DNA from: Escherichia coli
GTDB lineage: Bacteria; Pseudomonadota; Gammaproteobacteria; Enterobacterales; Enterobacteriaceae
Reading direction: 5' to 3' (one strand)
NCBI RefSeq assembly: GCF_003334255.1
Contig: NZ_QOWU01000189.1
DNA length: 776 nt
Part shown: positions 1 to 776 of the stretch, one piece after another
Position numbering within the stretch: the stretch's first letter is position 1
Layout: every line of letters begins with the position of its first letter
Position numbers: made by a program

Positions 1-776
1 AAAAAATGAGGTGCTTGCAGCAGATGAAATGAAAGAAACTATTCTTGATCGCGCGGCGCATCTAAGCTGCGCTTCACGGTTGAAAGAGCATCTTCAGCGG
101 CCTGAAGAAAAACGCCGCGATGAGCAGTTCGCGGCGTTTTACGATTATTGCATTGAAGTTACTCGCAGGAATTTTGTGAAGGCTTTTGAGGAGAGTAAAT
201 CTCTTCAGTAAGCTTAATGGCGGACGCTGCAATTAATTCAGGAAGGTCCGCAAGGTCATCTGTCAGTGGGAATGATGAAAAATCGGCGGCAGTTCTGTTA
301 AGAATTGCTTTAACTAATTCCTTTTCCTCATCCGGCAACACGTTGATTAGAGCTACGACTGCTTGCCTGAGTGCGATTAAATCAGCAAAAGTTTGTTTTG
401 GTAGATTTGGATAATCCATAGTCACCTCTGTGTTTATCAGATTGACATACCCTGGCCAGTGCCCACCACTGGCGGGGTGAAGGCTTAACATATCCAGGGA
501 TTCGGAACCGATAAATCCTGATAAATATCCATGAACGCAAAAATCAAATACGGCCTGTCGGCTGCCGTTCTGGCGCTGATTGCCGCAGGGGCTTCTGCGC
601 CTGAAATTCTCGACCAGTTTCTGGATGAAAAGGAAGGTAACCACACCACGGCATACCGTGATGGTGCAGGTATCTGGACCATCTGCCGTGGTGCCATCAT
701 GGTGGATGGCAAACCTGTCGTTCCGGGCATGAAGTTGTCGAAGGAAAAATGCGACCAGGTTAACGCCATTGAGCGT

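Follow-up and report, generated by a model that had tools for sequence, protein, structure and literature searches.

A likely tail-to-tail recombination scar and its candidate terminator hairpin in the lysis cassette of a lambdoid Escherichia coli prophage

We analysed a 776-nucleotide (nt) stretch of Escherichia coli DNA (NCBI RefSeq assembly GCF_003334255.1, contig NZ_QOWU01000189.1), hereafter the window, which belongs to the lysis cassette of a lambdoid (Stx/Qin-like) prophage: a holin gene, an open reading frame (ORF) of the YdfR/DUF1327 family, a reverse ORF of 86 amino acids (aa) and an endolysin gene. The plus-strand ORF at 11..211 and the reverse ORF at 159..419 (minus strand) overlap convergently by 53 nt (159–211), just as the original prediction, made from the window alone, had described, and a hairpin with a perfect 12-base-pair (bp) stem (109–140) lies inside the plus-strand ORF. 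Judged from the comparison of alleles, this arrangement is very likely a tail-to-tail recombination scar of ordinary phage mosaicism, in which a truncated YdfR-family gene meets a reverse cargo gene. The account as a whole, in which a hairpin of the ancestral gene was also co-opted as the terminator of the reverse gene, we regard as probable; for the terminator role taken by itself, the sequence leaves the scales about level.

Results

Truncation of the plus-strand gene and the recombination junction

The frame of 11..211 is almost certainly genuine coding sequence, by its conservation among homologues, of a truncated allele. Positions 11..211 are the last 67 codons, following an in-frame GTG, of a 211-codon ORF whose 3′ part fills 1..211 of the window (plus strand; open from position 2). 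The ATG of this ORF lies 4 nt past the stop codon of the class II holin gene, 424 nt upstream of the window, and in the source genome the ORF (L001 4576-5211) translates without a stop, in frame with window position 11. Residues 1–112 of the protein match Pfam DUF1327 (PF07041; E=1.8e-39), and the protein also matches phrog_2091, phrog_1085 and phrog_406; its variants had no match in NCBIfam. A protein search with a 329-aa relative recovered a family that is almost entirely from E. coli and falls into many length classes: DUF1327-bearing forms of 329, 325, 330, 296, 287, 268, 333 and 259 aa, forms of 185–221 aa that lack DUF1327, and truncated members with 169, 183, 211 and 263 aa. A conserved C-terminal domain (...EWECNRPSFVVSGD...GRCMGYLQVAAEIEALASGADKD...PGLTYLKGRI) is common to all full-length forms and absent from the window allele. 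In most family forms the motif KKRRDEQFAAFYDYC, sometimes varied, spans the hairpin in the frame of 11..211; the 296-aa and 268-aa forms are the exceptions.

This same-frame read-through in full-length homologues refutes the view that 11..211 is a spurious ORF. The original prediction had held that 11..211 is not a gene and had named protein-level conservation of the frame as the finding that would overturn this; such conservation extends over about positions 11–185. What stands of the claim concerns the extreme 3′ end, which is not ancestral coding sequence, and PGAP calls the ORF a truncated pseudogene ('missing C-terminus'); the frame itself is ancestral and coding. In the leftward extension proposed as a check, the frame does continue for 424 nt upstream, as a conserved DUF1327 ORF.

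The junction between the ancestral plus-strand gene on the left and the reverse-cargo module on the right was placed at about 186..200 by comparing alleles. To the right of the hairpin, three contexts occur. In the window type the plus frame reads FYDYC-IEVTRRNFVK(A/I)FEE(S/G)KSLQ*, followed by the reverse 86-aa ORF. In the Stx1 type it reads FYDYC-RKVMSRNLAECF and then runs for 250 nt antisense into another reverse gene of about 210 aa. In the intact type RKVMSRNLAECF leads on into the full C-terminal domain, with no reverse gene before the endolysin gene R (L035, 329 aa). The full-length allele P0104 (locus L108, 259 aa) reads ...FYDYCIEVTRRNFVKISGEEGHKSDF..., and the presence of IEVTRRNFVK in this full-length form identifies that peptide as ancestral plus-strand sequence and not as cargo. 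The DNA of L108 equals the 2H10 allele of the window-type module, with a 100% match, through GTGAAGATTT (window 185); the two are arguably homologous to about 199 (GAGGAGGGTAAA versus GAGGAAGGTCATAAA) and unrelated beyond.

The last three to eight codons of the plus-strand ORF, with its stop, are antisense of the cargo, and the last 8–13 codons of the reverse ORF, with its stop, are antisense of the ancestral plus-strand gene. Each ORF therefore runs past the joint to the first stop that it encounters in the antisense of the other module, which explains the 53-nt convergent overlap. The length of the overlap varies with the cargo, from 53 nt here to 250 nt with the Stx1 cargo. Only positions 190 and 194 vary within 186–211, and both changes are non-synonymous in both frames. 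An overlapping gene pair would be expected to show constraint in both frames and conservation of the overlap as a unit; the alleles compared show neither, and the ORF tails look non-native. In agreement with this, residues 73–86 of the 86-aa protein come out as disordered in its structural model.

Two other derivations were tried and rejected. That the whole tail at 147–211 is antisense of the cargo was ruled out by P0104/L108, in which IEVTRRNFVK is ancestral plus-strand coding sequence. That the 104-aa reverse gene of L108 and L110 is a longer homologue of the 86-aa ORF, from which the window would have arisen by simple deletion, failed on alignment, which gave no DNA similarity.

The sequence of events that we propose starts from a YdfR-family gene of 259–333 aa that would have stood between holin S and endolysin R and encoded an N-terminal DUF1327 domain, a coiled-coil linker, the motif KKRRDEQFAAFYDYC and the conserved C-terminal domain. 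This gene would have been cut at about 186–200 and joined to the reverse 86-codon ORF. After the junction event, the hairpin already present in the coding sequence would end the reverse transcript as a Rho-independent terminator and may thereby shield the holin and YdfR genes from antisense transcription. This supposes that the reverse ORF is expressed and that, in the plus direction, Q-antiterminated polymerase from pR′ would read through the hairpin. In lambdoid late transcription, polymerase that sets out from pR′ has been modified by Q and passes through terminators, so the hairpin need not hinder late expression of R.

The hairpin as a candidate terminator

Inverted-repeat search and folding delimit the hairpin to 109..140. 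Its two 12-nt arms, at 109–120 (AAAACGCCGCGA) and 129–140 (TCGCGGCGTTTT), are 100% complementary and 8 nt apart; a G+C-rich core of 8 bp (113–120/129–136) is extended to 12 bp by A-U pairs. The stem is unlikely to have arisen by chance, as had been claimed for it: a perfect 12-bp stem with a loop of 3–10 nt occurred in 1 of 3000 dinucleotide shuffles of the window, and the analytic expectation is 3.7e-4. The 61-nt region around it folds with −23.0 kcal/mol on the plus strand and −20.5 kcal/mol on the minus strand (z of −3.3 and −3.2 against dinucleotide shuffles), values reached by 1 of 200 and 0 of 200 shuffles, respectively. Rfam covariance models matched nothing in the whole window at E<=1. 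In the plus frame the codons under the hairpin specify E-K-R-R-D-E-Q-F-A-A-F-Y, with stem and loop within KRRDEQFAAF.

The G+C core is flanked on one side by an interrupted A-run at 105–112 (AAGAAAAA) and on the other by a T-run at 137–140 followed by ACGATTATT. For a minus-strand transcript this provides a U-tract at 101..112, in which the complement of 105–112, TTTTTCTT, has seven T in eight directly after the core; most other alleles have an uninterrupted T8 here. The plus direction offers a weaker U-rich tail at 137..149 (TTTTACGATTATT), and its U-tract is poor, with four in eight (UUUUACGA) against seven in eight on the minus strand. Read along the minus strand, the TAA of the reverse ORF (159–161) is followed by 18 nt, the stem from 140 to 109 with its 8-nt loop, and finally UUUUUCUU, for which most alleles have U8. 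The hairpin thus sits where the original prediction expected a terminator for the minus-strand gene, and on that strand it has a stable G+C-rich stem-loop, a U-tract after the stem and a location just past the stop codon, as intrinsic terminators do.

The hairpin shares with intrinsic terminators of the bidirectional type, which have an A-tract and a U-tract, its G+C stem, its loop of 8 nt, the U-tract that follows on the minus strand and the A-tract on the opposite side. Unlike them, it lies inside the plus-strand ORF, in ancestral coding sequence, and its plus-direction U-tract is poor. The proposal that two convergent genes share it as an intergenic bidirectional terminator did not hold: the ORFs overlap, and the hairpin is not between their stops but within the plus-strand ORF, 69 nt before its stop. 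SEnd-seq has mapped bidirectional terminators between convergent genes in E. coli, and these are reported to be unlike intrinsic terminators (bioRxiv 10.1101/2022.10.23.513370); the hairpin is for that reason comparable to the classical hairpin type only.

A second, weaker terminator-like hairpin, TCTTCAG-GCCG-CTGAAGA followed by TGCTCTTTCA, was found by inverted-repeat and terminator scans at 91..108 on the minus strand, and a further one on the same strand, AAGCACC...GGTGCTT followed by TTTTTCAATT, is formed by window 1–16 together with L001 4989-5016. Both are downstream of the main hairpin on that strand, in a 42-codon insert specific to the left-flank type of the window, and their number is not above shuffle expectation.

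Hairpin variation among alleles and the coding status of the reverse ORF

Several observations weigh against a terminator serving an active reverse gene. An automated terminator scan passed over 109–140 because it assigned the T-run to the stem. Alleles that have no reverse gene at all also carry the hairpin, in the middle of the gene; it therefore predates the cargo, was not imported with it and was not originally selected as its terminator. In about 100 IMG/VR loci and 10 allele classes, from which unrelated pattern matches (for example L042 and L013–L016) were left out, stem variants are mostly single third-codon changes without compensation (C115T, C118T, C130T and G133T/A), with occasional non-synonymous changes (G114A and T129A). 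The commonest allele with the 86-aa cargo, the 2H10 type with C130T, has a C.A mismatch in the minus-strand RNA, which folds with −14.6 kcal/mol and a 12-nt loop.

The reverse ORF itself adds to these points. Standard and relaxed consensus scans found no sigma-70-like promoter for it within 200 nt; such scans cannot exclude a weak promoter or one for another sigma factor. Substitutions in the ORF comprise 11 synonymous and 20 non-synonymous changes, a sign of weak constraint. A plus-strand ORF of 65 codons at 217–414, fully antisense to the 86-aa ORF, starts 5 nt past the stop of the YdfR-family ORF and is open in 25 of 26 unique variants; it lacks a Shine-Dalgarno sequence, and its S/A/G/R-rich composition argues against coding. 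Its substitutions number 13:15, against 11:20 in the reverse ORF, and the codon-position counts are 8/8/14 in both. Because the third positions of the two frames coincide, codon and substitution statistics cannot separate the reverse ORF from this antisense frame. The coding status of the reverse ORF rests instead on a Shine-Dalgarno sequence (GAGGTG) before its ATG, on length variants of the 86-aa family that differ by whole codons, on annotation and on a helical structural model, and not on clear purifying selection. AlphaFold2 models the protein as helical from residue 8 to residue 74, with a mean predicted local distance difference test score (pLDDT) of 61, too low for a fold search; residues 73–86 have a pLDDT below 50.

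It is possible, if doubtful, that the hairpin has no function of its own and is a by-product of the conserved peptide KRRDEQFAAF, which is self-complementary at the codon level and lies near the reverse stop; the reverse ORF may then be unexpressed or terminated elsewhere. The mid-gene position of the hairpin in alleles without a reverse gene, the synonymous and uncompensated variation and the lack of a detected promoter all speak for this, as does the 296-aa allele (L113 2001-2891; P0005/P0025 cluster). This allele, the most abundant full-length form (P0005 comprises 962 member sequences), is missing the five codons KRRDE, and with them the left arm, and has FDDYC in place of FYDYC; in other respects its gene is intact, and R follows directly. 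The uncompensated synonymous variants and the loss of the left arm indicate that the plus frame is constrained as protein and that the gene can do without the stem.

Four observations stand against a mere by-product. The codon choice yields a hairpin much stronger than the peptide and local codon usage would lead one to expect (p about 0.002 for either strand against synonymous recodings, a post-hoc value, the site having been picked for its hairpin). In the divergent allele P0112 (L117 1019-1684; KKRRDERDAMFYELC) pairing is kept by a double change from C-G to U-A at 115/134, together with a G.U pair, although this is the only compensatory pair seen. A G+C stem followed by T8 is textbook terminator anatomy. 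Finally, stems that are perfect or nearly so occur mainly next to an abutting reverse gene. Of the 14 loci with an adjacent 86-aa ORF, 10 have a perfect stem, and each of the 16 that carry the 210-aa reverse gene shows a single transition. In the 72 loci where the gene is full-length and reverse cargo is absent, the hairpin is missing from 32 and has a central C.U mismatch in 38 (70/72 together). These context classes represent few independent lineages, and the trend is suggestive only.

A conserved island around the hairpin

The hairpin lies in a conserved 44-nt island at 103..146, which match boundaries in BLAST, the alignment and the combinations of flank types mark as a mosaic joint. Other phages become homologous at 103 or 108, and at 146/147 the modules on the right part from one another. 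The left-flank type of the window occurs with two right modules, the 86-aa cargo found here and the full C-terminal domain of L035, and at least three left-flank types accompany the 86-aa cargo, giving the four-gamete pattern. Since left and right module types occur in several combinations, the island acts as a recombination joint, whether or not the hairpin contributes.

It is rather unlikely, although compatible with the co-option account, that the island is mainly a recombination linker in which the hairpin is incidental or promotes breaks. The boundaries at 103/108 and 146/147 and the shuffled flanks and modules are what such a linker would leave behind. However, the island encodes the most conserved peptide motif of the coiled-coil linker, and protein constraint alone could maintain the similarity; moreover, the cargo junction at 186–200 lies away from the hairpin.

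We consider it improbable that the nearly invariant A-run and hairpin form a functional nucleic-acid element, either a recoding or termination signal by which the long gene would give a short, DUF1327-only product or a structure-prone recombination hotspot that captures reverse cargo between holin and endolysin. If this were true, the truncated allele of the window would be the fixed outcome of that mechanism and not a random scar.

Further readings of the overlap

It is very improbable that both ORFs are functional and that the 53-nt overlap and the intragenic hairpin have been selected, as a convergent pair or an attenuator. Both reading frames do stay open across essentially all of the roughly 52 loci of this type. 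However, the junction between unrelated modules falls inside the overlap, whose length is set by the first antisense stop, so that a different reverse cargo, that of Stx1 phages, gives an 'overlap' of 250 nt; the variable sites in the overlap are non-synonymous in both frames, and PGAP flags the plus-strand ORF as truncated. The possibility of an attenuator within a functional overlapping pair, raised when the window was first read, is not sustained by these data.

Signals for −1 frameshifting of the dnaX type combine an A-rich slippery run with a downstream stem-loop. By sequence pattern, the A8 and hairpin of the long alleles might act as such a recoding signal (−1 frameshift or slippage) and yield a short, DUF1327-only isoform, a proposal that we hold to be highly improbable. 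The −1 frame stops at the TGA of the loop; on this proposal the truncated allele of the window would have the short form hard-wired. Like dnaX-type signals, the long alleles have an A AAA AAA run before a stable stem-loop and a −1 stop within a few codons, and in most alleles GAA AAA AAA CGC directly precedes the stem. K-12 YdfR, moreover, is a stand-alone 103-aa DUF1327 protein (PMC13232886). Unlike those signals, the run in the YdfR family abuts the stem without the 5–9 nt spacer of a frameshift site, in the window it is interrupted (GAAGAAAAAC), and the 296-aa allele does without the element. Variants with A7 that split the ORF also exist: at L090 ~1550-1620 and L043 ~1975-2040, which correspond to window 101–150, one A fewer precedes the hairpin (CCTGAAAAAAACGCC), and the long YdfR-family gene is divided into ORFs of 194 and 135 aa. 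These may hint at slippage but may equally be homopolymer sequencing errors or pseudogenes.

Hardly credible at all is the proposal that 11..211 is spurious and that an upstream plus-strand gene ends at 7–9 or 30–32 in another frame and shares a bidirectional terminator: the A-run and T-run do resemble those of bidirectional terminators, and PGAP makes no coding-sequence call for 11..211 in this genome, but the upstream DUF1327 ORF is in the same frame, uninterrupted from its ATG with no stop before 209–211, and the frame is conserved in full-length homologues.

The cargo slot and its neighbours

The whole window matches E. coli chromosomes with 98–100% identity; 4277 of 5426 complete E. coli genomes have a BLAST match to it, at least 80% of it is covered at one place in 293 of them, and lambdoid phages match too. 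The genes of E. coli STEC2018-607 run in the order antiterminator Q, several late genes, class II holin, YdfR pseudogene, reverse 86-aa hypothetical gene, lysozyme, Rz-like lysis protein and terminase. Phages PhiR5_1 and PhiR12_1 have an identical layout, in which the plus-strand ORF is annotated in full as 'DUF1327 containing protein' (211 and 169 aa, respectively) and so overlaps the reverse gene.

The reverse 86-aa ORF (159..419, minus strand; WP_001625288) belongs to phrog_2572 (E=3.6e-50). Its annotated start is the ATG at 419, and the frame could also be opened as 159..644 from an upstream GTG. The 86-aa family is almost entirely from E. coli, with one partial Salmonella match, and its full-length members share the same C-terminus (...PQKPSQNSCE) and junction. 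A search for a longer ancestral homologue ending in another, native C-terminus recovered nothing but frameshifted or partial variants, which agrees with the scar. The protein had no match in NCBIfam and only insignificant Pfam matches, to DUF1823 and ABATE (E 0.04–0.16). As the DUF1823 match reaches only E=0.042 over 30 residues (12–41), the label 'DUF1823 containing' in phage records is unsupported.

Among related phages the slot between holin and endolysin holds a reverse ORF of 86, 104, 106 or 210 aa, or none. It is empty in L035, L113 and L115. A reverse gene of 104 or 106 aa (phrog_1853) lies about 10 nt past an intact plus-strand gene in L108, L110, L118, L032 and Stx2a phages, and a reverse 210-aa gene, without a PHROG match, is found in Stx1a phages. 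Examples of these cargo genes are at 3140-3772 (minus strand) in L005 (210 aa) and at 3152-3466 (minus strand) in L110; that of L032 encodes 106 aa. PADLOC gave no match for the plus-strand protein or for the four reverse cargo proteins.

The right boundary of the slot, placed by alignments, is the hairpin GCCAGTG-CCCAC-CACTGGC (454–472) with the 76-nt endolysin leader (454..530), and matches to Stx2 phages begin exactly at window 455. In loci of the L110 type the hairpin at 454–472 is followed on the minus strand by TTTTATCTG and, lying upstream of the reverse 104-aa gene, has a terminator-like score. Beyond the leader, 531..776 (plus strand) is annotated as the 5′ part of the endolysin gene (lysozyme R, rrrQ-like). 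Its N-terminus, encoded by 531–620, reads MNAKIKYGLSAAVLALIAAGASAPEIL and resembles the N-terminal signal-anchor-release segment of P21-type endolysins, to which it may correspond.

Discussion

The feature is real and ordinary: a junction in a mosaic prophage will be unsurprising to phage genomicists. The slot invites comparison with morons, variable genes at one position of a late operon that are dispensable for lysis or morphogenesis and are present, absent or replaced among related phages (PMC2629481). Like the morons of lambdoid late operons, the slot holds one of at least four alternative reverse cargos or none. Unlike them, the reverse ORF has no detected promoter of its own, its putative terminator is borrowed from the coding sequence of its neighbour, and its 3′ end is fused into that neighbour.

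The truncated plus-strand gene may not be inert. YdfR of K-12 (103 aa) is reported to bind RNase E's catalytic domain via its residues 1–72 and to co-purify with RNA, with possible RNA binding (PMC13232886). The N-terminal 112 residues of the window ORF match DUF1327, as YdfR of the Qin prophage does, and the position between holin and endolysin is the same; the window ORF differs from YdfR in its 211 codons, its coiled-coil linker and its foreign tail of 8 codons, and from the long forms of 259–333 aa in lacking the C-terminal domain. Since the reported binding of RNase E involves residues 1–72, a truncated allele that retains DUF1327 could, by analogy, still be active.

For annotation, the lesson is that tail-to-tail fusion of two modules, with each ORF continuing to the first stop in the antisense of the other, can produce the apparent conflict of a terminator inside an ORF together with a convergent overlap. 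ORFs of 169, 183, 211 and 263 aa listed as 'YdfR family' are truncated derivatives of a gene of 259–333 aa, and the last few codons of both convergent ORFs are non-native. If the hairpin does terminate the reverse transcript, it would be a modest case of a terminator recruited from a hairpin in coding sequence. More broadly, the holin–endolysin interval of Stx/Qin-like prophages emerges as a slot for at least four alternative reverse genes, which may interest searches for accessory or defence cargo.

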